Assembly (NCBI GenBank): GCA_964472495.1
Contig: CAYYLD010000001.1
Span: 21,294 to 85,293, forward strand
DNA from: an uncultured Candidatus Saccharibacteria bacterium
GTDB lineage: Bacteria > Patescibacteriota > Minisyncoccia > Portnoybacterales > UBA2143
Reading direction: 5' to 3'
Length of the DNA: 64,000 nucleotides
Both the position numbers and the translations under genes were made by a program. Positions 14,316-32,029 of the stretch are shown one piece after another (within the stretch, counting starts at the first letter, position 1; each line of letters begins with the position of its first letter). A model generated the notes under the pieces. The model did not search any database. It was not told where the DNA came from and worked only from the letters and a program-made list of their open reading frames with translations.

Positions 14316-14326
14316 AACAATGTTTT

Positions 14327-14400
14327 GGGCGTGTAGCTCAGGGGTTAGAGCATTGCTCTTATAAAGCAAGGGTCGATGGTTCGAATCCATCCACGCCCAC
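14327..14400 (+). tRNA. tRNA-Ile (anticodon TAT)
   Basis: Hand fold: acceptor GGGCGTG/CACGCCC, D-arm GCTC..GAGC, anticodon stem TTGCT/AGCAA, loop CTTATAA, T-loop TTCGAAT. Confidence 0.7.
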
Positions 14401-14403
14401 CCC

Positions 14404-14477
14404 GGGCGGTTAGCTCAGCTGGTTAGAGCGCTACCTCGACACGGTAGAGGTCGCAGGTCCGAGTCCTGCACCGCTCA
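14404..14477 (+). tRNA. tRNA-Val (anticodon GAC)
   Basis: Acceptor GGGCGGT/ACCGCTC (one G-U pair), anticodon stem CTACC/GGTAG, loop TCGACAC, T-loop TCCGAGT. Confidence 0.75.
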
Positions 14478-14481
14478 CTAA

Positions 14482-15741
14482 ATGAAACAAAAAAATCTAA
14501 TCATCAGTTTAATCGTTCTGGTAGCCGTTATTGTTATCGGCGCCTTGTTGTACAAACCAGCTTCGGAAACGCCTCCTCCTGCCCCACCAGTTGATGACAG
14601 CGGAGCGACTGACCAAGGAGTTGCCAGTGTTATTGAAGCTAATAATCAATTTGCCTTAGAGTTCTACCAGCAAATTAAAGATGGGGAAGAAAATATCTTT
14701 TTCTCGCCTTATAGCATCTCGACCGCTTTGGCCATGACTTATGAAGGGGCCCGCGGCCAAACCGCTCAAGAAATGCAGTCAGTTTTCCATTTTCCGGAAG
14801 AGGATAGTATTCGCCGACCGGCCATGGCCAAGATTTACAACCAAATCAACCAAGAAGACAAGGAATACGAACTTTATACGGCTAATGCTTTGTGGGCTCA
14901 AGAAGATTATTCTTTCTTAGACGAGTATATTAATTTGATTGACCAATATTATGGCGGCCGGGTGACCAATCTTGATTTTATTAAGGAAACCGAGAAGTCA
15001 AGGAAGACAATTAATGACTGGGTCGCTCAACAGACCAAAGACAAAATACTTGACTTGATTCCAGCTGGCGTCCTTAATGAACTAACTCGTCTTGTTTTAA
15101 CTAACGCTATTTACTTTAAGGAACAATGGCTAATCCAATTTGATGAAGAGAATACGACCGAGGAAGATTTTAGGGTCAGTCCGGAGAAAACAATTAAGGT
15201 GCCGATGATGAGTTTAACCGATGGAGAAATAGAATTTAATTATCTGGAAACGGAAAAATTACAAATCTTGGAAATGCCCTATGATGGAGAAGAATTATCT
15301 ATGTTGGTTTTGCTCCCTCAAGAGGATAGCTTAGTCACCTTGGAAGAATCGCTCAACCTGGATAATCTTGCCCAATGGCGAGAGATGCTTAGTCAACAGC
15401 CGGTTAACGTCTTTATGCCCAAATTTACTTTTGAGACCAAATATTTCTTGAACCAAGACCTCCAGGAAATGGGCATGCCGACTGCTTTCTCCATGCAGGC
15501 CGATTTTTCCGGCATGGACGGGACCAAAGATCTTTTTATCAGCAAGGTCATCCATCAGGCCTTTATTGAGGTAAATGAAGAAGGAACCGAGGCGGCGGCG
15601 GCCACGGCGGTGGTTATAGAATTAAAATCAGTCGGGCCTTCCGTAGCCGTTTTCCGAGCCGACCATCCTTTCATTTTCTTAATCCAAGACAACCAGTCAG
15701 GCAACATTTTATTTTTAGGCCGGGTAGTTAATCCCAGTTAA
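14482..15741 (+). CDS. serpin (serine protease inhibitor) with N-terminal membrane anchor and Pro-rich linker
   Basis: FFSPYSISTALAMTYEGARGQTAQEM matches the conserved serpin N-terminal core, and the C-terminal FRADHPFIFLIQDNQSGNILFLGRVVNPS matches the serpin signature. A reactive-centre-loop-like EGTEAAAATAVV lies upstream of it. Confidence 0.8.
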   Translation: MKQKNLIISLIVLVAVIVIGALLYKPASETPPPAPPVDDSGATDQGVASVIEANNQFALEFYQQIKDGEENIFFSPYSISTALAMTYEGARGQTAQEMQSVFHFPEEDSIRRPAMAKIYNQINQEDKEYELYTANALWAQEDYSFLDEYINLIDQYYGGRVTNLDFIKETEKSRKTINDWVAQQTKDKILDLIPAGVLNELTRLVLTNAIYFKEQWLIQFDEENTTEEDFRVSPEKTIKVPMMSLTDGEIEFNYLETEKLQILEMPYDGEELSMLVLLPQEDSLVTLEESLNLDNLAQWREMLSQQPVNVFMPKFTFETKYFLNQDLQEMGMPTAFSMQADFSGMDGTKDLFISKVIHQAFIEVNEEGTEAAAATAVVIELKSVGPSVAVFRADHPFIFLIQDNQSGNILFLGRVVNPS

Positions 15742-15834
15742 TATATTTCCCGATTTAAAGCTGGATAAAAATAGTCGTCTCAGGCGACTATTTTTCTTGC
15801 TTTTTAGCTGTTTTTTTGGTATTTTATGATTATT

Positions 15835-15907
15835 GGGCCGGTAGTTCAGCGGTAGAATATCTCTTTTGCACAGAGAAGGTCGTGGGTCCGATTCCCACCC
15901 GGTCCAC
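15835..15907 (+). tRNA. tRNA-Ala (anticodon TGC)
   Basis: Acceptor GGGCCGG/CCGGTCC with the G3:U70 Ala identity pair. Anticodon stem TCTCT/AGAGA, loop TTTGCAC. Confidence 0.8.
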
Positions 15908-16666
15908 ATGCCCCTTAAGCCAAATCCATCTATTAAGTTAAAGATTGTTTATGAGAATACAGATGTTCTTGTTATTGATAAGCCAGCCGGCTTGGTCGTC
16001 CACCCGATAAAGTCAACCCAAAGCGATACTTTAGTTAACGGCTTAATCGCCTACTACCCGGAAATTAAAAAGGTTGGCGATGATTCTTTGCGGCCGGGCA
16101 TTGTTCACCGATTAGATAAAGACACTTCCGGCTTAATAGTGGTAGCGAAAAACAATGCTGCTTTCGAATATTTAAAAAAGCAGTTTGCCGCGCGAAAAGT
16201 TGTTAAAAAATATTTGGCCTTGGTATATGGTCAAGTTAAAGATAAAAAAGGAACGATTACTAAAGCCATCAGTTTATCTAAAAAAGACCATAAAAAAAGA
16301 AGCGCTTTATTGGATGATAAAGCCAAGCGAGCTTGGACTGAATATAAGGTTTTGAAAAGATTTTCTGCCAAGAGCGGATCCGCCTCTGGCGAGAAGGACT
16401 ATACTCTTTTAGAAGTTGAGCCAAAGACCGGCCGAACCCATCAGATTAGAGTTCATTTAGCTTCCATTGGCCATCCGATTGCCGGCGACCAGCAATATAA
16501 ATTCAAAAGACAGCCAGCATTAGCTGGCTTGAAAAGACAATTCCTCCACGCCGCTTACTTGAAATTAAAACTGCCCAATGGTAAACTGGTCGAGCTTAAA
16601 TCGGACTTGCCAGAAGATTTAGAAAAGACTTTAAAGGATCTCGGGGCGTCCCGAGACACACTATGA
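15908..16666 (+). CDS. RluA-family pseudouridine synthase (RluD-like, no S4 domain)
   Basis: [16 protein letters not shown] catalytic motif. Start trimmed to the ATG at 15908 because the track ORF begins inside tRNA-Ala. Confidence 0.8.
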
Positions 16667-17001
16667 ATAAGCTTGATTTATTCAATAAAAAACAACTAAA
16701 GAAAATACCAGAAATTAGACCGGGCTACACAGTCCGGGTTCATCAGAAAGTAAAAGAAGGCGACAAAGAGAGAATTCAAATCTTTGAAGGTTTAGTTATC
16801 GCTTGTAAACATGGCCGTGGTGTCAACGGGACAATCACTGTTAGAAAAGTCAGTCAGGGGTTTGGCGTAGAAAGAATTTTTCCGCTCCATTCACCAGTCA
16901 TTGAAAAAATAGAAGTGGTTAAAAAACATAAAGTGAGACGGGCCAAACTTTACTATATCCGTCATAAATCAGCTAAAGAAGCGAGGTTGAAGGAGAAATA
17001 A
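16663..17001 (+). CDS. rplS: 50S ribosomal protein L19
   Basis: Matches the conserved bL19 sequence along its length ([15 protein letters not shown]...RIQIFEG). 112 aa. Confidence 0.85.
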
Positions 17002-17087
17002 GCCCAGGTGGCGGAATTGGCATACGCGGCAGCTTGAGGAGCTGTGCTCGAAAGGGCGTGCGGGTTCGAGTCCCGCCCTGGGCACCA
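17002..17087 (+). tRNA. tRNA-Leu (anticodon GAG)
   Basis: Acceptor GCCCAGG/CCTGGGC, anticodon loop TTGAGGA, long variable arm, encoded CCA. Confidence 0.75.
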
Positions 17088-17088
17088 A

Positions 17089-17166
17089 GGGGCGGTTGGC
17101 GCAGTTGGTTAGCGCGTCTCGTTTACACCGAGAAGGTCGGGGGTTCGAATCCTCCACCGCCCACCA
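17089..17166 (+). tRNA. tRNA-Val (anticodon TAC)
   Basis: Acceptor GGGGCGG/CCGCCCA, anticodon stem TCTCG/CGAGA, loop TTTACAC, T-loop TTCGAAT, encoded CCA. Confidence 0.8.
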
Positions 17167-17246
17167 AATAGCTGTTATCAGCGGTTATTTTATTTGACAA
17201 ATCAATAGATTCATGCTATCCTTGAACAAAATTAAAGGAGGGTAAA

Positions 17247-18260
17247 ATGGCTAAAAAACCAACCATTGAAGAAATCAGAAAGTACCTTAACGAGTATGAT
17301 CCACTTGGTCTGAGGGGAGCGTCAATTGACTTAATTGGCGCTCACAACCATATTATTTACCGATTAGCCAGGGCTGGCAAATCCTTTTGTCTGCGGATGA
17401 TAAATCCGGAAAGCTATCGGGCCGGCGAGTGGCTGACTATCCCTGAAGAATTTACTATCCTTCACTACCTGAAACTCACCGGCTTAGGGCCAATACCCTA
17501 TTTTGTTGACCCGGAACGATTCAGACTCCCATTAACTATCCAAGAGTTCGTCTCGGAAATCACCTACTTTAATAATTTGAAGCCGTTCAACGAAGAGCAT
17601 CTGAAGGCAGCCGCCAAGGCGATCGCCTTACTAAACTCCCTAAACATTGACCCGATCAGATTCCCTTTCCGAAAAGGTTTTACCCGCTACTCTTATCTGA
17701 CCAGCTTGGAAACCTGGCGAGAACGCCTGGCGATAATTAAAAAGTCCGAACAGAAAGATATTCTGGAATGGGTAGACAAACTCAAAGAAGTAGTCAAGCA
17801 GGCAAAGCCGATTTTGGAAGGATTTGAACCTCTCTTGAGAGAGAGTGGTTCGCTTTTTAACTTCGACGGCGCTCACTGCGGAAATACTTTTTTGCGAGAA
17901 AAGTCAGGCAAAGTTGTTTTCCTTGACTGGCAGAAAGTAAGCTACGGAGATCCCAGTTTTACCCTGGCCCGCTTCTTAACCTCTATTGGAAAAAAAGGGG
18001 AGATTCCGGACGGAGCTAAAGAGTTGATGATTGAGGCCTATACTCAAACGGCGGCCTATCATAACTTGCTTAATAGTCATCCCAAATTAGCAGTAAATTT
18101 TGAGAAGCTGGTTGACCAGCGCCTCTTTGAACGCCAGATAGCTGACCTCATCTGGGTGGTCTGGGACTATACCAAACAAGTCAAAACCGAACCAGTTGAG
18201 GAAGCAACTAGCGTAGTTGCTCGCTACCAAAGAGTTATCGAGATGCTGAGACAATACTGA
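17247..18260 (+). CDS. phosphotransferase-family kinase (APH/choline-kinase-like fold)
   Basis: Catalytic-loop-like FDGAHCGNTF and the LDWQKVSYGDPSFTLA (DWE..GDP) motif typical of aminoglycoside/choline/homoserine kinase-type phosphotransferases. Strong RBS AAAGGAGGG. Confidence 0.6.
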   Translation: MAKKPTIEEIRKYLNEYDPLGLRGASIDLIGAHNHIIYRLARAGKSFCLRMINPESYRAGEWLTIPEEFTILHYLKLTGLGPIPYFVDPERFRLPLTIQEFVSEITYFNNLKPFNEEHLKAAAKAIALLNSLNIDPIRFPFRKGFTRYSYLTSLETWRERLAIIKKSEQKDILEWVDKLKEVVKQAKPILEGFEPLLRESGSLFNFDGAHCGNTFLREKSGKVVFLDWQKVSYGDPSFTLARFLTSIGKKGEIPDGAKELMIEAYTQTAAYHNLLNSHPKLAVNFEKLVDQRLFERQIADLIWVVWDYTKQVKTEPVEEATSVVARYQRVIEMLRQY

Positions 18261-18287
18261 GACACTCTCAATTTTTTCTGGAAAACA

Positions 18288-18324
18288 AACGGTTGCCGGG
18301 AAACAAACCGACAACCGTTTTTTA
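18288..18324 (+). terminator. Rho-independent terminator
   Basis: AAACGGTTGCCGG-gaaacaaa-CCGACAACCGT with one mismatch, followed by TTTTTTATTT. Confidence 0.65.
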
Positions 18325-18397
18325 TTTGACCCCGCATCAGAGAAATCTCGGGGCGGGGTTTGACCAAAACGCTTAAAAATGGTAATTTAGGCATTAA

Positions 18398-18488
<91 letters not shown>

Positions 18489-18518
18489 TTGGAAGTTATT
18501 ATCTTTTAATCAGAAATT

Positions 18519-18986
18519 ATGAGAGATCCGCTTCTTGAAATATCAGGTAAAATTATTGGTTTTTACGAACGAGAGTTTTATTGTTTTTCTAATTTTTCCA
18601 GTTTTACAGTTCAATGGAAAGACAAATTATGGCAAACATCGGAACACGCTTATCAAGCTTCAAGATTCTTTGAAAAGCATCCCGAAGTGGTGGAAGAAAT
18701 TTTTAATGCTCGTTCAGCTCATCAGGCCAAAAAAATTGCAGAAAAATATAGTGATTTAGCTGCCCCTGATTTTCACAAAGATAGGATTGCGGTAATGGAA
18801 GATATCTGCAGCCATAAACTACAACAGCATCCCTATATTCAAAAGAAGCTTTTACAAACAGAAAATAGAGAGATTGTAGAAGATTCTCCTCAAGACAGCT
18901 TTTGGGGCTGGGGTCCGAATAGAGGTGGCAGAAATGAATTGGGCAAAATTTGGATGAGACTTAGAGATAAATTTGTAAACCAATAA
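18519..18986 (+). CDS. NADAR (YbiA-like) domain protein
   Basis: FYCFSNFS...WQTSEHAYQASRF matches the NADAR/DUF1768 core. 155 aa. Confidence 0.6.
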   Translation: MRDPLLEISGKIIGFYEREFYCFSNFSSFTVQWKDKLWQTSEHAYQASRFFEKHPEVVEEIFNARSAHQAKKIAEKYSDLAAPDFHKDRIAVMEDICSHKLQQHPYIQKKLLQTENREIVEDSPQDSFWGWGPNRGGRNELGKIWMRLRDKFVNQ

Positions 18987-21736: not shown

Positions 21737-21810
21737 GGCCACGTGGCCGAGTGACTAGGCAACGGTCTGCAAAACCGTTTACACCGGTTTGAATCCGGTC
21801 GTGGCCTCCA
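21737..21810 (+). tRNA. tRNA-Cys (anticodon GCA)
   Basis: Acceptor GGCCACG/CGTGGCC, anticodon stem ACGGT/ACCGT, loop CTGCAAA, T-loop TTTGAAT, encoded CCA. Confidence 0.75.
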
Positions 21811-21811
21811 A

Positions 21812-21897
21812 GCCGCGGTGGCGGAATTGGTTTACGCGCACGACTTAAAATCGTGTGGACTTTGTCCATGTGGGTTCGAGTCCCACCCGCGGCACCA
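21812..21897 (+). tRNA. tRNA-Leu (anticodon TAA)
   Basis: Acceptor GCCGCGG/CCGCGGC, anticodon stem CACGA/TCGTG, loop CTTAAAA, long variable arm, encoded CCA. Confidence 0.75.
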
Positions 21898-21900
21898 TAT

Positions 21901-21929
21901 AAAAACCCCGTCGTTCGACGGGGTTTTTA
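21901..21929. terminator. bidirectional Rho-independent terminator
   Basis: AAAAA-CCCCGTCG-tt-CGACGGGG-TTTTTAT: perfect 8-bp stem with an A-run before and a T-run after. It overlaps the stop codon of the convergent minus-strand gene. Confidence 0.8.
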
Positions 21930-22421
21930 TGTCTCCAGAATCTCTACTTTAGCTATTTTGAGACCAAACTCTTTAGCTTCTTGACGGCTGGCAAACCAGA
22001 TATCCACCTTATGGCTGTTCCGAGCAGCCATTCGGTCCTCAACAATGAAGATTTTATCTCCATACAATTGAGGGAAGCGAATCCTGGTACCAAATCTCAA
22101 GAAATTACAAGCGACCACGCCGTCCCGGACATTACTGCCCGAAGCGGTAATAAAAGGCGTGGCGTCGGTTTGGTCAGGGGTGCTGGAATAAGCAGTTACC
22201 GGCACCCAGTATTGAGTAGCGACCACCGGCGTATCAGGATTAGTTGACTGAATCAAGGCCTGGCCCTGAAGAGTAACCAATCCGTCAAGCGGCGTCAGAG
22301 CTAAATCAACTTCTTGATTCCCAATCAAACTAAAGCCGGTTAAGGCCGATTGAGGGAAAACAAGGTGATAAATCAAGCTAACTAAAGTCAAAGAAGCGGA
22401 AATCTTAGGATTAGTATACAT
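21927..22421 (-). CDS. 3D (Asp-Asp-Asp) domain protein, secreted (cell-wall-acting, MltA/YuiC-like domain)
   Basis: Signal peptide. C-terminal VPVTAYSSTPDQTDATPFITASGSNVRDGVVACNFLRFGTRIRF...VDIWF resembles the 3D domain. Confidence 0.55.
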   Translation of the reverse strand: MYTNPKISASLTLVSLIYHLVFPQSALTGFSLIGNQEVDLALTPLDGLVTLQGQALIQSTNPDTPVVATQYWVPVTAYSSTPDQTDATPFITASGSNVRDGVVACNFLRFGTRIRFPQLYGDKIFIVEDRMAARNSHKVDIWFASRQEAKEFGLKIAKVEILET

Positions 22422-22550
22422 ATTGTCCTTTCGGCAATCAAAAAATCCCCTTTCAGGGATTTCCTATATACTATCACATTATAAGTAATTTGTCAATAGT
22501 TTCAGCTGATTCCTAAAATTTCCGCTTTTGGCCATTTTCAGCTGTTTTTG

Positions 22551-22622
22551 AGCGGGTAACGGGAGTCGAACCCGTGTCTTCTCCATGGCAAGGAGATATA
22601 ATAGCCACTATACGATACCCGC
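22551..22622 (-). tRNA. tRNA-Gly (anticodon GCC)
   Basis: The reverse complement folds with acceptor GCGGGTA/TACCCGC, anticodon stem TCTCC/GGAGA, loop TTGCCAT, T-loop TTCGACT. Confidence 0.75.
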
Positions 22623-22628
22623 TTTTGG

Positions 22629-22700
22629 TGCCGAGGGTGGGAGTCGAACCCACTACTTTCTCTTTTTCAGAGAGACACTCTACCGGTGAGTTACCTCGGC
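22629..22700 (-). tRNA. tRNA-Phe (anticodon GAA)
   Basis: The reverse complement folds with acceptor GCCGAGG/CCTCGGC, anticodon stem TCTCT/AGAGA, loop CTGAAAA, T-loop TTCGACT. Confidence 0.8.
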
Positions 22701-22761
22701 ATGGCCCGCCAAGGGCGGACACAATTCTTGTAGCCAAAATAAATTTTAGACAAAAATTATG

Positions 22762-22835
22762 TGGACCCAGAGGGATTCGAACCCTCGACCTTTAGTATGC
22801 CATACTAACGCGCTAACCAACTGCGCCATGGGCCC
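22762..22835 (-). tRNA. tRNA-Ala (anticodon GGC)
   Basis: The reverse complement folds with acceptor GGGCCCA/TGGGTCC including G3:U70. Anticodon stem TTAGT/ACTAA, loop ATGGCAT, T-loop TTCGAAT. Confidence 0.75.
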
Positions 22836-22853
22836 CTTTTTTGCCCACTCGGA

Positions 22854-22925
22854 TGCCCTCGGTAGGAATCGAACCCGCATCAAGGGCTTAGGACGCCCCT
22901 GCTCTATCCGTTGAGCTACGAGGGC
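22854..22925 (-). tRNA. tRNA-Arg (anticodon CCT)
   Basis: The reverse complement folds with acceptor GCCCTCG/CGAGGGC, D-arm GCTC/GAGC, anticodon loop GTCCTAA. One C-A mismatch in the T-stem. Confidence 0.6.
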
Positions 22926-25088: not shown

Positions 25089-25162
25089 CGGGCTGTGGCC
25101 TAGCGGTTTAAGGCACACGCATGGGGTGCGTGGGATCGCGGGTTCGAATCCCGCCAGCCCGA
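25089..25162 (+). tRNA. tRNA-Pro (anticodon GGG)
   Basis: Acceptor CGGGCTG/CAGCCCG (C1-G72 as in tRNA-Pro), anticodon stem CACGC/GCGTG, loop ATGGGGT, T-loop TTCGAAT. No encoded CCA. Confidence 0.75.
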
Positions 25163-25288
25163 CTGGACAAAGCTCGAACCTTTTTCGAGCAACAATTTCT
25201 TACCCCAGAACCCTTCCAATTTTTTCGTCGCCTATTTGCCTTGTTCGTAACCGAGAAGCAAAGGTGGGACGAGCCAAAAATTATTGAA
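25162..25288. repeat. left arm of a perfect 127-bp inverted repeat (partner 30675-30801)
   Basis: 25162-25288 equals the reverse complement of 30675-30801 base for base by manual alignment. It begins at the tRNA-Pro discriminator base and contains the hairpin GCTCGAA-ccttt-TTCGAGC. Confidence 0.85.
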
Positions 25289-25571
25289 AGGTTGTGGAAA
25301 ACTTACTTTGCCACGATTGGAATTATTTAGTATTATTATAATTGAACTGATTAAACAATAGATATTTGTTCCTATTTATTTTTTACAGCAAAATAAAGTT
25401 ATGGAGGGTTATGTAAAAAATAAGACGAACTATGCTAATTTTGTCAAAATAAAAGATGGCATAATTAACGCTTGCCGACTTTTTGTTTTGGCAAAAAATC
25501 TTAATAGAAACACTGTTTTTAACAGCGTTTTTTGTTTGTGAAAGGTCAAAATAAAAATTCATTATTGAGTT

Positions 25572-26777
25572 ATGAAAAAAGTTAAAAAAACAAAGGGAGG
25601 AAAAAAACTAAATATTCCCCAGTCAAAAGAAACAGTCAGCGAACGAGAGGCGATTCTCACCTCTGTCGGCGATCCTGTAATGGGATTGGCGGTCGTTGAC
25701 AAAGATGGGAGAATAATACATGTCAATGCAGGCTTTGGAGCGCTGACTGGCTGGAAAAAAGAAGAAGTGATTGGCAAATCTTTGGTTAAAGTTATCCCCA
25801 GAGAAGATGAAAATAGGAATAGAATACCATTCCGAGAAAGAGTCCTCTCCGAGGTATTGTCAGGAAAAGTAATAACTACTATAGCTGTTAATGTTGCGGC
25901 TAATATTGAAAAACTGCCTACTTTTTATTACGTCCGAAAAGACAAAAGCAGATTTCCGGCCAGCAGTGTTATAAGCCCCGTGTTGTTTAAGGGAAAGATA
26001 ACCGGAGCCGCAGAAGTTTTTTACGACATTACTAAAGAAAAAGAATTAGAGCGAATCAGGATAGATTTTTTGTCACTGGCCTCTCATCAATTGCGCACTC
26101 CGCTTTCCGGCACCAAGTGGTTGATTGAAACGATGTATAAAGGACTCGTAGGCGAGATGACAAAAAAACAAAAAGAGTATCTTGATGATATTTATAAAGT
26201 TAATGAGCAGATGATTAAGCTTGTTTCCGATATCTTGAGCACGTTGCGGCTGGAGAGCGAGGCGGCGCTAATAAAAAAAGAGAAAGTTTCAGTATTATCT
26301 CTTTTTAAAGATATTTTAACTGCAGTGACGCCGGCAGCCAAAGAGAGGAGAGTATTATTACAAAGCCCATTAAATCATCGGAGACTTATTATTGAGATAG
26401 ACCCAGAAATATTGAAATCAATTCTTAGATCTTTTCTTTCTAACGCTATTAATTATTCAAGGCCGGGTCAAAAAGTGATTTTGGATGTTAAAAAAGAATC
26501 AGGGGCGGTAGTATTTTTTGTTCGCGATTTCGGGATCGGTATCCCCCAAAAGGAGCAGAAAAGAATGTTTGAACGATTTTATCGCGCTTCTAATGCAAGG
26601 GCTTTTAAACCAACTGGCACAGGTCTCGGTCTTAACATTGCCAGAGTGCTGGCTGAAAAGATTGGCGCAGAAATTTCATTTGAATCCAAAGAGAATAAAG
26701 GTTCTACCTTTTATTTACGCATCCCCAAAAGGTCGAACAGGGGTGCCAAAGCGAAAAGCCGTAAGGCTAAAAAGTAA
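25572..26777 (+). CDS. cytoplasmic sensor histidine kinase (PAS + HisKA + HATPase_c)
   Basis: PAS-like N-terminus, H-box LASHQLRTPLSGTKWLIE, N/G-boxes (NAINYS, DFGIGIP, GTGLGL). No TM segments. Confidence 0.85.
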   Translation: MKKVKKTKGGKKLNIPQSKETVSEREAILTSVGDPVMGLAVVDKDGRIIHVNAGFGALTGWKKEEVIGKSLVKVIPREDENRNRIPFRERVLSEVLSGKVITTIAVNVAANIEKLPTFYYVRKDKSRFPASSVISPVLFKGKITGAAEVFYDITKEKELERIRIDFLSLASHQLRTPLSGTKWLIETMYKGLVGEMTKKQKEYLDDIYKVNEQMIKLVSDILSTLRLESEAALIKKEKVSVLSLFKDILTAVTPAAKERRVLLQSPLNHRRLIIEIDPEILKSILRSFLSNAINYSRPGQKVILDVKKESGAVVFFVRDFGIGIPQKEQKRMFERFYRASNARAFKPTGTGLGLNIARVLAEKIGAEISFESKENKGSTFYLRIPKRSNRGAKAKSRKAKK

Positions 26778-26795: not shown

Positions 26796-27188
26796 ATGAG
26801 TCATATATTAATTGTTGAAGACGAAGATTTTTTAATTCGGACACTTGAAGATAATTTAGTCACCGAGGGCTATACGGTTGATATTGCCAAAGATGGAGAG
26901 GAGGCGGTTGAGAAAATAGGAAAAAAGAAGCCAGACCTTATTCTGCTTGACATTTTGATGCCCAAAAAGGATGGCTTTTATGTGCTGGGGGAGACAAAAA
27001 AGAATCCTGAATGGAAATTGATTCCAGTGATTGTTTTGTCGAATCTTGGAGAAGATACGTTAATCAAGCGGGCTCTGGGGATGGGCGCTGATGACTATTT
27101 TGTAAAATCACAACACCCGATTCAAGAAATAATTGAAAAAGCGAAAGATTATCTTGAAGGCAGAAAAGCGGCCAAGCCCCGTCTTTAA
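26796..27188 (+). CDS. single-domain response regulator (CheY-like receiver)
   Basis: ILIVEDEDF, phospho-acceptor region LILLDILMPKKDGF, then VIVLSNLGE...GADDYFVK. 130 aa with no output domain. Confidence 0.85.
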   Translation: MSHILIVEDEDFLIRTLEDNLVTEGYTVDIAKDGEEAVEKIGKKKPDLILLDILMPKKDGFYVLGETKKNPEWKLIPVIVLSNLGEDTLIKRALGMGADDYFVKSQHPIQEIIEKAKDYLEGRKAAKPRL

Positions 27189-27199
27189 CAGCCGATAAA

Positions 27200-28876
27200 A
27201 TGAAACTTCAGCATATATGTTTCTCACTATTGATCCTAGCATTGGTTCTGTTTTTGCTTCCGATTGTCGTTGTAGCCGATCCGCCAGGCAGCGCAGTTAA
27301 ATTTGTCATTTTAAAACCAGATGACAGCATAGTTGGCACGCCAGTAACTGTTACTATTGAAGCCCAAAAAAGCAATAATCAGGTTGATACGGATTATCAA
27401 AGCGATGTAACTCTTGTGACCAACGGCTCGGCCACGGGCGCCGGTCTGGTGGACATTGTCAACGGCATAGGCACGATTGAAATCAATGACGAAGTGGCTG
27501 AAACCGTCAATCTTTCGCTTTCTGACACAAAAGAAACCGGACTGGATGTGAGTTCTACCCAAGAGGTTGATTTTGAAGCCGCTGAAGAAGCAGTTTGGAA
27601 TCAAACAGATTTTTGGTTCAGAGATGACGACGGAGACGAGGCTACTGCCAGCGGGTTTGGAGCTGAAAACGTAAGTCAGAATACAAATATTATCAATGTG
27701 CCGCAGGGGACAAACTTGCGTCTGCGTTTTGGCATCAGGGTTACTGGCTTTAGCGGTACCCTTATCCCTTGTCTTGAGTTTAAGCAGGGCGCTGATTGTG
27801 CTACCGGCAATTGGACAGTTATTACTCCAACGAGTGATACTTTTAATCTTTATTTATCAGACAATTTTGATGATGGCGACGCTACCACCAAGCAAATCAC
27901 AAACGGTTCTTTTGTCGCCGGCCAAATTCTGGAGTCAACCAATCCGGCTTCTTCTTTAGACCTGGCTAAGAACAAAAACACGGAATACGAATGGTCAATA
28001 GAAGTTGCCGGGGATGTCCCAGTCAGCACAACTTACAGTTTTAGGGTTAGTAATAATGGGACTGCCTTTGATAACTACGATGTGTGTCCGTCTCTGACGA
28101 CTCAATCGGGGTCAGAACCAGAGCCAGAACCAGAGCCGACTCCATCTGGCGGAAGCAAAGTAAGACCTACCACGGTAACATTTTCCGGAAGAGCTTTTCC
28201 GAACGCCAAAATATTGGTGTTAGATAAAGATGCAAGGTTAAGAAAGGCAATTAGCCAAGATTTTGTAGCTGACGAAGAAGGAAAATTTAGCGTGAGCTTC
28301 ATTGGCATAATGCAAAGTTGGCATAGTTTTGGTCTTTTGATAAAAGACAAAGAAAATCGGACCACTCAGACGAAATTTTTTAATATTGATACTTTGGCCA
28401 ATGACCTGGTGGTAAAAGATATTCTGGTACCACCAACCGTAGGTTTTACTCAAGGGGTAGTTACGCGAGGACGCAACGCCGTCATTGTCGGCTACGCTGC
28501 CCCAGAAAATGACGTTGAAATAGAAATAGGAGATATCAAGAAAGAAATTAAAGCAGAAAAAGATGGTTCATATAAAGCAGAAGTTAATACAGGAATGCTT
28601 GAATTTGACCAGCATAGAGTACGCGTAAAACAAATTGATCCGCAAGAAAAAAGGGAAAGCGATTTTTCAGTAACGAAAACTTTAGTGGTTTCGCGTCTTG
28701 CTTCGCCAAAAACAGATTTGTCCGGCGATGGCCGGGTAGATATTAGAGATTGGAGCATGTTTCTTTCAAGGTGGGAGTCAAAAGACAAAAGTCAGAAAAA
28801 AATAATTGATTTCAACGATGACGGGGAAATAAATATTTCAGATTTTAGTATATTTATTCGTGCTATTAAAAAATAA
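27200..28876 (+). CDS. secreted multidomain protein with C-terminal dockerin (type-I-like) module
   Basis: Signal peptide, an EPEPEPEPTP linker, and a C-terminal duplicated Ca-binding segment DLSGDGRVDIRDWSMF / DFNDDGEINISDFSIF that matches the dockerin DxDxDGxVxxxD pattern. Confidence 0.65.
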   Translation: MKLQHICFSLLILALVLFLLPIVVVADPPGSAVKFVILKPDDSIVGTPVTVTIEAQKSNNQVDTDYQSDVTLVTNGSATGAGLVDIVNGIGTIEINDEVAETVNLSLSDTKETGLDVSSTQEVDFEAAEEAVWNQTDFWFRDDDGDEATASGFGAENVSQNTNIINVPQGTNLRLRFGIRVTGFSGTLIPCLEFKQGADCATGNWTVITPTSDTFNLYLSDNFDDGDATTKQITNGSFVAGQILESTNPASSLDLAKNKNTEYEWSIEVAGDVPVSTTYSFRVSNNGTAFDNYDVCPSLTTQSGSEPEPEPEPTPSGGSKVRPTTVTFSGRAFPNAKILVLDKDARLRKAISQDFVADEEGKFSVSFIGIMQSWHSFGLLIKDKENRTTQTKFFNIDTLANDLVVKDILVPPTVGFTQGVVTRGRNAVIVGYAAPENDVEIEIGDIKKEIKAEKDGSYKAEVNTGMLEFDQHRVRVKQIDPQEKRESDFSVTKTLVVSRLASPKTDLSGDGRVDIRDWSMFLSRWESKDKSQKKIIDFNDDGEINISDFSIFIRAIKK

Positions 28877-28885
28877 AATGAAAAA

Positions 28886-30622
28886 ATGAAATATCAATTT
28901 AAAACAATTATAGCCATATTGGCTGGGGTCATTGCTTGGGGTATTTTTTCTTCGGCGCAGGCCGCTACACTTTCTTTAACACCTATTAGTTCCGAGATTG
29001 GAATCGGAGAAAAAATGACGATTGAGATTAGGATTGATAGCGAAGGGGAAAGCTTTAACGCAGCCCAGGCAGTAATTCGTTTCCCTAAAGATACGCTTGA
29101 GGTGACTGCATTAGACAAAGCAGAATCCGTATTCAGCTTTTGGCTTGAAGAGCCAAATTTTTCAAATACGGACGGAGTTGTATCATTTATCGGCGGCACA
29201 CCGTCCGGAGTTTCCGGGGGCGCTGTCAGAGTTCTGAAGATAGAATTTCTGGCCAAAGGAACTGGTAGCGGGACACTTTCTTTTGTAGAAGCCGCTGTCA
29301 CGGCGGCTGACGGAAGCGGAACCAATATACTATCAGAGATAAATGATGCAGTGATTATGGTAGTCCCTCAAAGAGTTATTCCAAAAGTTCCAGAATCCCA
29401 GCAAAAAATTCCGGAGCCCGAACAAATTGTCCGGAAACCCGCGCCTTCAGAGAAATTGCCTTCAAGCCCCGTTCTTAAAATTTCACTCTATCCTGAAGAA
29501 ACCCGTTGGTATAATCTGGTGGCGCAGTTTACGGTAAGTTGGGATTTACCGCTTGATATTTCTGGCGTGAGCACGGCGCTCAACAAATACCCAAACTCTA
29601 TCCCGCCCGGACGATCCGAAGGACTTTTTGATAATAAAAGCTTCGCGGCGCTCGGAGACGGCATTTGGTACCTTCATGTTCGTTTTCAAAACAATCTTGG
29701 CTGGGGACCGACTGCGCATCACCGTTTGGCCGTTGATACCCAACCCCCACTTGGTTTTGAGCTTACCGTCGTTGAAGGCGAGGCGACTGATAATCCAACC
29801 CCTACGTTTCAATTCAAGACCAGCGACGCTCTCTCTGGTCTTCGAGAGTACCAGGTAAGAATTGGCGACGGAGATCTGATAAAAATTCCCGCAGCGGAGT
29901 TTAATGGGAGCTTTAAGTTACCATTGCAATCGCCGGGTAAGCGGCGGATTACCGTAAAAGCGGTTGATCAGGCCGATAATGGCATTGAAGATGACGTAAT
30001 GCTGGAAACTATTCCTATTGCGTCACCGACCATAAGTTTTGTTACCAGGGAATTATTCTCTGATGAGGAAAGAGGCTTAACTATCAAAGGAACGGCCTTG
30101 CCGGGTGTTAATATGCTGCTGGCTGTTCTTCGGCAAGGCGCGCTTGTTGCTGAAAGCACAATTCGCGCTGATGAAAAAGGCAACTGGGAATTTACTTTTG
30201 ACCAGCCTTTTAGGAATGGACGGTATATTTTAACTGCCCAGAGTCAAGATGAGCGAGGCGCCTTGAGCTTAACAGTGGAATCTCCAGAAGTGCGGGTCAA
30301 AAGCAAGCCGATTATCCAGATTGGGTTTATCCAGCTGGGGAAAGGCGGCGCGGCCCTGCTCTTGCTTTTCATACTGATAGTAGGGTTTGGCACAGGAGCT
30401 TGGTTTTATAAAAAACGGCAGGAGAAATTAGCCCTGCGACTTTTGGTTGTTAAAACCGACATGGCCAAGGTCTTTAAACTTATTCAGGACGATATAGAAA
30501 AATTACAAAAAGCCATTGGAACTCCAATCGAGGCGGACGACGAATTTATGATGAAAAGACTGCAGGAAAATATCAAGAAAATGGAAGGATATCTCAAAAA
30601 AGAAATAGAGAAATTAGAATAG
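28886..30622 (+). CDS. cohesin-domain-like surface protein, C-terminal TM anchor and cytoplasmic coiled coil
   Basis: Signal peptide. An N-terminal beta-rich module (ATLSLTPISSEIGIGEKMTIEIRID...AQAVIRFPKDTLEV...VRVLKIEFLAKGTGSGTLSF) resembles cohesin domains. Pro-rich linker, further Ig-like modules, TM helix AALLLLFILIVGFGTGAW, then KR-rich coiled coil. Confidence 0.5.
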   Translation: MKYQFKTIIAILAGVIAWGIFSSAQAATLSLTPISSEIGIGEKMTIEIRIDSEGESFNAAQAVIRFPKDTLEVTALDKAESVFSFWLEEPNFSNTDGVVSFIGGTPSGVSGGAVRVLKIEFLAKGTGSGTLSFVEAAVTAADGSGTNILSEINDAVIMVVPQRVIPKVPESQQKIPEPEQIVRKPAPSEKLPSSPVLKISLYPEETRWYNLVAQFTVSWDLPLDISGVSTALNKYPNSIPPGRSEGLFDNKSFAALGDGIWYLHVRFQNNLGWGPTAHHRLAVDTQPPLGFELTVVEGEATDNPTPTFQFKTSDALSGLREYQVRIGDGDLIKIPAAEFNGSFKLPLQSPGKRRITVKAVDQADNGIEDDVMLETIPIASPTISFVTRELFSDEERGLTIKGTALPGVNMLLAVLRQGALVAESTIRADEKGNWEFTFDQPFRNGRYILTAQSQDERGALSLTVESPEVRVKSKPIIQIGFIQLGKGGAALLLLFILIVGFGTGAWFYKKRQEKLALRLLVVKTDMAKVFKLIQDDIEKLQKAIGTPIEADDEFMMKRLQENIKKMEGYLKKEIEKLE

Positions 30623-30674: not shown

Positions 30675-30801
30675 TTCAATAATTTTTGGCTCGTCCCACC
30701 TTTGCTTCTCGGTTACGAACAAGGCAAATAGGCGACGAAAAAATTGGAAGGGTTCTGGGGTAAGAAATTGTTGCTCGAAAAAGGTTCGAGCTTTGTCCAG
30801 T
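30675..30801. repeat. right arm of the perfect 127-bp inverted repeat (partner 25162-25288)
   Basis: See the left arm. Divergence starts immediately outside both ends (25289 a vs g; 25161 g vs t). Confidence 0.85.
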
Positions 30802-30873: not shown

Positions 30874-31086
30874 TCAAGGTGAACTGATTTTAATACTTTT
30901 TATTCGGCCACCCCGCTTCTTCATCTTGCCTTGAATCCGGCGAAATTTAATATGACGACATTTAACATTGTTAATTCCCCCGCAATTAGGACAATTTACT
31001 AAAAAACTAGGGTTTCCTTCTCCTTTTCTCTTGACTCTGGAGATATCAATTTCATTACCGCAAGACCGACATCTTATCCAGTCCAT
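30874..31086 (-). CDS. zinc-ribbon miniprotein (CxxC-x22-CxxC), paralog C
   Basis: 70 aa MDWIRCRSCGNE...VNCPNCGG. GGGGAGG RBS. Basic C-terminal tail. Confidence 0.55.
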   Translation of the reverse strand: MDWIRCRSCGNEIDISRVKRKGEGNPSFLVNCPNCGGINNVKCRHIKFRRIQGKMKKRGGRIKSIKISSP

Positions 31087-31619: not shown

Positions 31620-31811
31620 TCACCAAATACTTGTCAACGGGTCGGTCGCGGCAATTGTCTCAATCCCTTGACCAAATTGTTTAATCATGTTTCTGGCTCG
31701 ACAAAGAGGACATTTGACTATCCGGCTATCTTCAAAACCAGGATTGACTTCTAGAGGTATAGATTCTTCTCCGCACCACCAACACCTTACTTTGATTTCT
31801 TCCTTTTCCAT
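31620..31811 (-). CDS. zinc-ribbon miniprotein (CxxC-x21-CxxC), paralog B
   Basis: 63 aa MEKEEIKVRCWWCGEE...VKCPLCRARN. RBS GAGAGG. Confidence 0.55.
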   Translation of the reverse strand: MEKEEIKVRCWWCGEESIPLEVNPGFEDSRIVKCPLCRARNMIKQFGQGIETIAATDPLTSIW

Positions 31812-31831: not shown

Positions 31832-31990
31832 CTAAAATTCGTTTGGATTAATAACAATAACCTTGCCGTTCTTTTTCTTCTCAACTATGTTCTTAAAGCC
31901 GCAACGGGGACATTCAATTGCCCTTTTTTTGTCCAAAGAACCGTCCTTGAATATAATTCTTTTCCGACAACCCTGACATTCTAACTTCAT
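31832..31990 (-). CDS. zinc-ribbon miniprotein (CxxC-x18-CxxC), paralog A
   Basis: Start trimmed to MKLECQGCRK... (ATG 31990), which has the RBS GAAAGGAGGGAGGG. The longer track ORF would include the upstream terminator U-run. Confidence 0.55.
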   Translation of the reverse strand: MKLECQGCRKRIIFKDGSLDKKRAIECPRCGFKNIVEKKKNGKVIVINPNEF

Positions 31991-32029
31991 TCCCTCCCTC
32001 CTTTCTGTTGTTAAAATGTTAAAGGACAA

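Follow-up and report, generated by a model that had tools for sequence, protein, structure and literature searches.

Type I cohesin-dockerin pairs have been described in clostridial cellulosomes, as exemplified by the CipA cohesin and the Xyn10B dockerin of Clostridium thermocellum (1ohz), where a scaffoldin carries multiple cohesins. Other cohesins belong to the GH33/GH84 toxin complexes of Clostridium perfringens (2vo8, 2w1n, 2o4e) or to Archaeoglobus fulgidus (2xdh), and in these cases the modules are carried by secreted glycoside hydrolases or lie within one polypeptide. Anchoring scaffoldins, such as SdbA and OlpB of C. thermocellum (which have S-layer homology, SLH, modules) and ScaE of Ruminococcus flavefaciens (which has a sortase signal), provide a cell-bound cohesin that captures a dockerin partner. 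Cohesin-dockerin modules outside cellulosomes have been reported in every domain of life (Peer et al. 2009, cited in PMC10066038). The present analysis concerns a 64,000-nucleotide stretch of DNA (hereafter the window, whose positions are used throughout) from an uncultured Candidatus Saccharibacteria bacterium (assembly GCA_964472495.1, contig CAYYLD010000001.1, positions 21,294 to 85,293). It carries two adjacent genes, encoding a secreted protein with a C-terminal dockerin (protein A) and a membrane-anchored protein with a cohesin module (protein B), just downstream of the genes of a two-component pair. This system is a transmembrane-anchored, single-cohesin, probably adhesin-displaying and two-component-linked module that is widespread in Patescibacteria, its cohesin and dockerin being themselves of a known kind.

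The locus differs from clostridial cellulosomes in several respects: protein B has only one cohesin, which shares only 9-16% sequence identity with solved cohesins, neither a carbohydrate-binding module (CBM) nor an enzyme cargo was found, and the host belongs to Patescibacteria and not to cellulolytic Firmicutes. Whereas the C. perfringens and Archaeoglobus modules are associated with secreted enzymes or confined to one polypeptide, the cohesin found here is borne by a dedicated stalk protein with a transmembrane (TM) anchor, the dockerin by a non-enzymatic, adhesin-like protein, and the two genes are adjacent and tied to a two-component pair. Protein B would have the same role as anchoring scaffoldins but its anchor consists of a C-terminal TM helix followed by a cytoplasmic tail; neither an SLH match (Pfam) nor an LPxTG motif was found in this protein. 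The design of the putative assembled A-B pair (membrane anchor, immunoglobulin (Ig)-like stalk repeats and distal beta-sandwich head) is like that of fibrillar adhesins, and the partner proteins found in related loci carry repeats that are typical of adhesins (CLIPPER, TIG, fn3 and Big). However, the A-B fibre is split into two polypeptides at the cohesin-dockerin joint, so that its head would be exchangeable. The NCBI pipeline labels some of the proteins of these metagenome-assembled genomes as "cohesin domain-containing" or "dockerin type I domain-containing". In the searchable literature, we found no description of the dockerin-cohesin gene pair, or of its linkage to a two-component pair, in Patescibacteria, the candidate phyla radiation (CPR), Parcubacteria, Paceibacteria or DPANN.

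Architecture of the two proteins and of their putative operon

An earlier note on this DNA, made from the sequence alone, had reported two adjacent open reading frames (ORFs) of 558 and 578 amino acids (aa), and both are indeed present on the + strand: protein A is encoded by 27200..28876 and protein B by 28886..30622. They share one frame and are separated by a TAA codon and 9 nt. The same note had recognized a duplicated calcium-binding tail matching the dockerin consensus at the end of protein A, and profile searches agree: aa 505-556 (28712..28867, + strand) match the Pfam profile Dockerin_1 (PF00404) with 30.9 bits (cut-off 22.9, E 3.2e-07) over positions 2-56 of 57. The C-terminus also matches dockerin_GC of NCBIfam weakly, and its top PDB sequence match is 5lxv_B, a dockerin of R. 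flavefaciens crystallised with its cohesin. Type I dockerins comprise two segments of ~22 residues, each made of an EF-hand-like loop of 12 residues (Asp/Asn at positions 1, 3, 5, 9 and 12) followed by a helix. The duplicated segment of protein A (DLSGDGRVDIRDWSMF / DFNDDGEINISDFSIF, aa 506-521 and 537-552) contains two canonical 12-residue loops of this type, D506-D517 (ligands D506-S508-D510-D514-D517) and D537-D548 (ligands D537-N539-D541-N545-D548). Each loop is followed by the helix start [WF]-S-[IM]-F, which makes the dockerin nearly symmetric internally. Seven of the positions (D506, D510, D517, D537, N539, D541 and D548) are kept in 89-100% of the 81 loci compared, and the motif pair is unique among the 82 ORFs of at least 90 aa in the window. 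Judged by its profile match and its predicted calcium loops, the C-terminus of protein A qualifies as a type I dockerin.

The remainder of protein A precedes this module on the + strand and makes it a secreted all-beta protein composed of a repeat module, a head, a PEP linker, an Ig-like stalk and the dockerin. It starts with a hydrophobic signal-like segment (aa 1-26, 27200..27277), identified by hydropathy and with a presumed cleavage site. Then come a beta-repeat, Ig-like module of ~98 aa (aa 30-128, 27287..27583), delineated by blastp and matching Ig_VWA7 weakly, and a conserved orphan beta-sandwich head (aa 130-300, 27587..28099). This head displays the motifs FWFRDDDG, FRLRF, TEYEWS and YSFRxxNNG, in this order, and two conserved cysteines (Cys200/Cys296). 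A flexible linker that can be read directly (SGSEPEPEPEPTPSGGS, a PEP linker, aa 303-319, 28106..28156) connects it to a conserved stalk (aa 320-499, 28157..28696). According to Pfam and to the comparison of homologs, this stalk probably consists of two Ig-like domains (weak Big_6-like matches); it is co-conserved with the dockerin across all partner proteins. The passenger is entirely made of beta-sandwiches and no catalytic domain was detected in it. Searches of Pfam and NCBIfam gave no match to glycoside hydrolase, lyase, esterase or CBM profiles in protein A or B, and structure comparison gave no enzyme-like match for the head. This annotation of the passenger bears out the earlier proposal that it would not be a cellulase. 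As a separate observation, the module at aa 30-128 is 50-70% identical to tandem repeats of "beta strand repeat-containing" proteins from Bacteroidota, Planctomycetota and a marine-sediment metagenome; such an identity between phyla is unusually high and may reflect domain transfer.

Protein B begins with a signal peptide-like segment that ends in AQA (aa 1-26, 28886..28963, + strand), supported by hydropathy and by conservation, A26 and A27 being conserved in at least 90% of 80 loci. The module that follows (aa 27-160, 28964..29365) had been described as cohesin-like, and this view was upheld by the orthologs and by the structure, not by the profile score of the protein itself. Both single-sequence and profile comparisons of protein B with PDB sequences retrieved cohesins only below significance (profile E 0.07-0.12). 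Since Pfam, NCBIfam and PDB-sequence searches did not provide any significant cohesin match for protein B, a fold search was needed, and aa 27-160 display the nine-stranded flattened beta-sandwich (jelly-roll) of cohesins. Furthermore, 12 of the 31 full-length orthologs (51-88% identical to protein B) match the cohesin profile PF00963 at E <= 0.01 (best 2e-08), and several orthologs are already named "cohesin domain-containing protein" by NCBI. The conserved residues map to strands 3, 5 and 6 and to the loop between strands 8 and 9 (N58, A59, Q61, F85, W86, P90, F101, G104 and D142-N147). Side-chain orientation left aside, these positions are compatible with the known dockerin-binding face of cohesins (8-3-6-5 sheet). 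In view of its modelled fold and of the profile matches of its orthologs, we regard this module as a divergent cohesin.

The cohesin is followed by a Pro-rich linker that can be read directly (aa 161-198, 29366..29479) and by a stalk (aa 199-472, 29480..30301) probably made of three Ig-like domains, the last of which passes the Big_13 threshold of Pfam while the first two are only sub-threshold Big_13-like. The earlier description of a TM anchor and a coiled coil at the end of the protein fits what hydropathy and direct reading indicate, i.e. a single TM helix (aa 487-507, 30344..30406) and a charged cytoplasmic tail of 71 aa (aa 508-578, 30407..30619). The tail has a basic start (YKKRQ) followed by two heptad-patterned helices (3-4 hydrophobic spacing) that are split by GTP. 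It is conserved in close relatives; family-wide, no other region of protein B is less conserved (its mean pairwise identity is 0.25), and K565 and Y569 are its only positions kept at >=90%. Taken together, these features make protein B a type I membrane protein, with a cleavable-looking signal, a distal cohesin, a linker, an Ig-like stalk, a TM helix and a cytoplasmic tail.

A PAS kinase/receiver pair had been noticed just upstream, and Pfam confirms both genes on the + strand. The first one (25572..26777) encodes a soluble histidine kinase with PAS, HisKA (39.3 bits) and HATPase_c (82.5 bits) domains and an H-box (SHQLRTP) that can be read directly. The second one (26796..27188) encodes a stand-alone receiver regulator of 130 aa (Response_reg, 80.8 bits, aa 4-108) with the motifs VEDED and LLDILMP. 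The histidine, the HATPase_c domain, the acidic pocket and the phospho-acceptor Asp expected of a two-component system are therefore all present. Hydropathy did not reveal any TM segment in the kinase or in the receiver. These genes are the only histidine kinase and the only response regulator detected by phmmer searches in the whole window, so that, in a rough comparison, their linkage to the module is far above background. The gaps between the kinase, receiver, A and B genes are 18, 11 and 9 nt long. The best promoter-like match of the region, a sigma-70-like candidate (TTGCCA-17-TATTAT, 25308..25336, + strand; a 10/12 match to the consensus only, which is not functional evidence), lies upstream of the kinase gene. 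Therefore, from their spacing and from the position of this candidate promoter, the four genes look like a single operon.

Conservation of the gene pair across Patescibacteria

Relatives of protein B were sought by a pattern scan in which each GTDB species was represented by one genome, and 107 genomes encode one. The loci of 80 of them, each from a different assembly, were fetched and all these genomes gave one locus each. The named lineages include Azam-, Wolfe-, Nomura-, Yonath-, Adler-, Staskawicz-, Yanofsky-, Giovannoni-, Harrison-, Colwell-, Ryan-, Lloyd-, Uhr- and Magasanikbacteria; Niyogibacteria came from a separate search. Complete genomes exist for members of Wolfebacteria (CP011209.1) and Niyogibacteria (CP066691.1). 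The B family of Patescibacteria is large and well conserved: the homology search yielded 375 matches to it, and an exhaustive cohesin-profile search yielded 419 clusters (at 50% identity) at E <= 1e-30, 4371 at E <= 1e-10 and 8885 at E <= 1e-3.

The gene content of the loci was established with a hidden Markov model of the dockerin tail built from 66 homologs of protein A and with phmmer searches using the kinase, the regulator and the stalk of the window. In 80 of the 81 loci for which at least 300 nt of upstream sequence are available, the ORF that immediately precedes the cohesin gene, in the same orientation, is dockerin-positive. This adjacency is kept over a deep divergence, the identity of the B relatives decreasing to ~33%. 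Almost all loci (82/83) have one cohesin-bearing ORF. Where long flanks are available (41 loci), a receiver-only regulator is always present and a histidine kinase is found at 38 loci. The order found in the window (kinase, receiver, dockerin, cohesin) is the commonest (23/41), and a receiver gene is directly downstream of the cohesin gene in 14 loci of the 41.

The dockerin partners are 420 to 2979 aa long (median 1047); all of them share the C-terminal stalk and dockerin, and their N-terminal parts differ. Most of the complete partners (42/50) match Dockerin_1 independently (E <= 1e-4). Their other domains are Ig-like, fn3, InlB B-repeat, YDG, TIG, SusE, RTX, CBM96, BNR_2 (n = 2) and beta-helix (n = 1), and no recognised catalytic domain was found among the 25 most frequent families of these 50 partners.

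Some additional observations concern particular loci or proteins. In one locus (L033), a second gene encoding a dockerin and a stalk, immediately followed by two more ORFs with cohesin modules (14913-18837), is found 4 kb downstream of the primary pair, and this arrangement is, as judged from the gene order, a duplicated dockerin-then-cohesin unit. A protein of 2276 aa (P0285) and ~20 proteins of 530-900 aa belong to the cohesin subfamily; some of them have two matched stretches and one has nine, and multi-cohesin, scaffoldin-like proteins may thus exist among the relatives of the single-cohesin anchor. Lastly, contigs that end within 3 kb of the cohesin gene (loci L005-L084) do so about twice as often upstream, i.e. 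in the dockerin-partner gene (n = 29), as downstream (n = 14; binomial p = 0.03), as though repeats or differences between strains affected the passenger region in nature.

Probable surface display of the passenger and competing explanations

The explanation that we consider probable is that the locus encodes a minimal, non-cellulosomal cohesin-dockerin system for the surface display of an exchangeable adhesin, genetically tied to a two-component pair. As far as sequence analysis can tell, the established part of this mechanism comprises the identity of the domains, the topology in the membrane, the operon-like gene arrangement, the conserved adjacency and the modularity. After Sec export of both proteins, the calcium-loaded dockerin of A would plug non-covalently, in a 1:1 ratio, into the single cohesin of B. 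The complex would then be a two-piece fibrillar adhesin, anchored by the TM helix of B and with the head of A at its tip. Several Ig domains would separate this head from the membrane, placing it outside the wall, and there it would bind a ligand on a host cell or a substrate. Since the anchor and the passenger are encoded by separate genes and would be connected by nothing but a conserved plug and socket, lineages could exchange the passenger without touching the anchor. Given the lifestyle of the clade, the ligand is probably located on the surface of a host or partner cell; the complete genomes of relatives are 0.84 and 0.98 Mb in size. The weakest step would be the last one, in which the soluble PAS kinase and the receiver would couple an intracellular signal to the surface complex by protein-protein interaction or phosphorelay and not by direct DNA binding.

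Several results weigh against this explanation. Protein B of the window did not give any match to PF00963, even at E <= 1. Among the 81 loci, a single one (L016, contig CAYHUD010000002.1) is devoid of a nearby dockerin gene; its gene order is kinase, kinase fragment, receiver, cohesin, receiver. A mirror-tree comparison of dockerin and cohesin divergence in 80 pairs gave r = 0.34 and a partial r of 0.18, no higher than for other pairs of regions; the two modules are probably too conserved for this approach to be informative, and it therefore neither supports nor refutes binding. The regulator has only a receiver domain, Pfam having identified neither a DNA-binding nor an enzymatic output domain on it, which implies control through protein-protein interaction or a further relay. 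Combined with the poor conservation of the tail of B, this lack of output domain leaves the link to the kinase a conjecture.

The missing profile match and the flat mirror-tree are also what would be expected if A and B were expressed together but functioned independently at the surface. The module of B would then be a generic beta-sandwich spacer or would bind another ligand, and the dockerin of A would be a stabilising or EF-hand-like calcium-binding module or would have a different partner, such as a component of the host or of the wall. Dockerins that lie outside cellulosomes and have no known cohesin partner are common. However, the two genes remain adjacent at nearly all loci whatever the divergence of B, and this adjacency is retained even in the duplication; the dockerin and the cohesin are among the most conserved segments whereas the passenger varies, and orthologs of B do pass cohesin profile searches. 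We therefore consider it very unlikely that the two proteins are only co-expressed. That A would be a carbohydrate-active enzyme borne by a dockerin on a scaffoldin, as in cellulosomes, appears extremely improbable. Cohesin and dockerin are hallmark modules of cellulosomes, and CBM96, BNR_2 or beta-helix domains do occur in a few partners (1-2 of 50). However, neither A nor B has any of the enzyme or CBM profiles searched, the head of A does not resemble an enzyme, B has a single cohesin and neither CBM nor SLH module, and the partners are mostly made of Ig, fn3, TIG and InlB-repeat modules. The cellulosome-like interpretation was thus rejected.

Other possibilities add a function to display instead of replacing it. 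The A-B complex might also serve the two-component pair as its sensor outside the cell, which we consider unlikely. Signalling could proceed outside-in, with a ligand or a force on the head being transmitted through the TM helix and the cytoplasmic helical hairpin of B to the PAS kinase or the CheY-like receiver. It could also proceed inside-out, with the phosphorylated receiver binding the tail of B and changing the state of the surface complex in an integrin-like manner. The kinase and the receiver, devoid of TM segments, could respond to external cues only through a partner in the membrane, and the constant presence of the receiver-only regulator, encoded just after the cohesin gene in 14/41 loci, and the heptad-patterned tail kept among close relatives point in the same direction. 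However, this tail is the most variable part of B at the family level, and PAS kinases usually sense cytoplasmic cues by themselves. In a bolder version, distinctly unlikely in our opinion, the module would provide ultra-small episymbionts with a device for adhesion and signalling comparable to integrins, in which host contact would be relayed via the tail of B to the kinase and the CheY-like receiver, or in the reverse direction, and would thereby be coupled to cell behaviour without any transcription factor.

Flanking sequence and significance for Patescibacteria

The four genes had been described as a cassette bounded by an inverted repeat (IR), and they are indeed flanked by a perfect IR of 127 nt, whose left arm (25162..25288) starts at the 3' end of a tRNA-Pro(ggg) gene and whose right arm lies at 30675..30801. 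Three independent JGI contigs (L085, L086 and L087) carry the left arm, and one of them (L085) stops 62 nt into the right arm, which is where an assembly broken by a repeat would be expected to end. No evidence of inversion was obtained, all three contigs spanning the left arm being in the orientation of the window, and Rfam gave no match at the IR. The IR is absent from all the related loci (80+) and is therefore species-specific and not part of the conserved module; the hypothesis that it would be a conserved part of the system was rejected accordingly.

Between the right arm and the next long gene, an otherwise ORF-poor segment of 1.45 kb contains three paralogous-looking ORFs on the - strand (30874-31086, 31620-31811 and 31832-32029; 70, 63 and 65 aa), all of them zinc-ribbon-like in having two CxxC pairs. 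On the other side, within 15 kb of the operon, the upstream DNA includes dense tRNA clusters (21737-22925 and 14326-17166), with six tRNAs in 1.2 kb on both strands and several adjacent pairs. Another upstream feature is a tmRNA call by ARAGORN (17997-18487) that overlaps both a 337-aa ORF (17247..18260, with an APH domain in an identical JGI contig) and a tRNA-Ser (18398-18487); Rfam found no tmRNA at gathering score in this interval, and the call is probably a false positive.

Patescibacteria (CPR) represent a large share of bacterial diversity and most of them are thought to be attached to host cells. To our knowledge, apart from a few cultivated Saccharibacteria, little has been described of the molecules by which they attach. 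In one cultivated Saccharibacterium, an envelope protein with a dockerin domain has been reported to be essential (PMC10633639), and proteins of this kind are thus of interest for life as an epibiont. Protein engineering could also benefit from the A-B pair as an orthogonal set of cohesin and dockerin. Cohesin-dockerin systems are not known to be linked to a soluble PAS kinase and a receiver without output domain, and the steady linkage seen here hints that attachment to surfaces and signalling are coupled. Overall, this work points to a single-copy and near-universally syntenic plug-and-socket pair in the Parcubacteria/Paceibacteria branch, present in at least 107 species-representative genomes, and the variation of its head between lineages is what would be expected for a determinant of host range.

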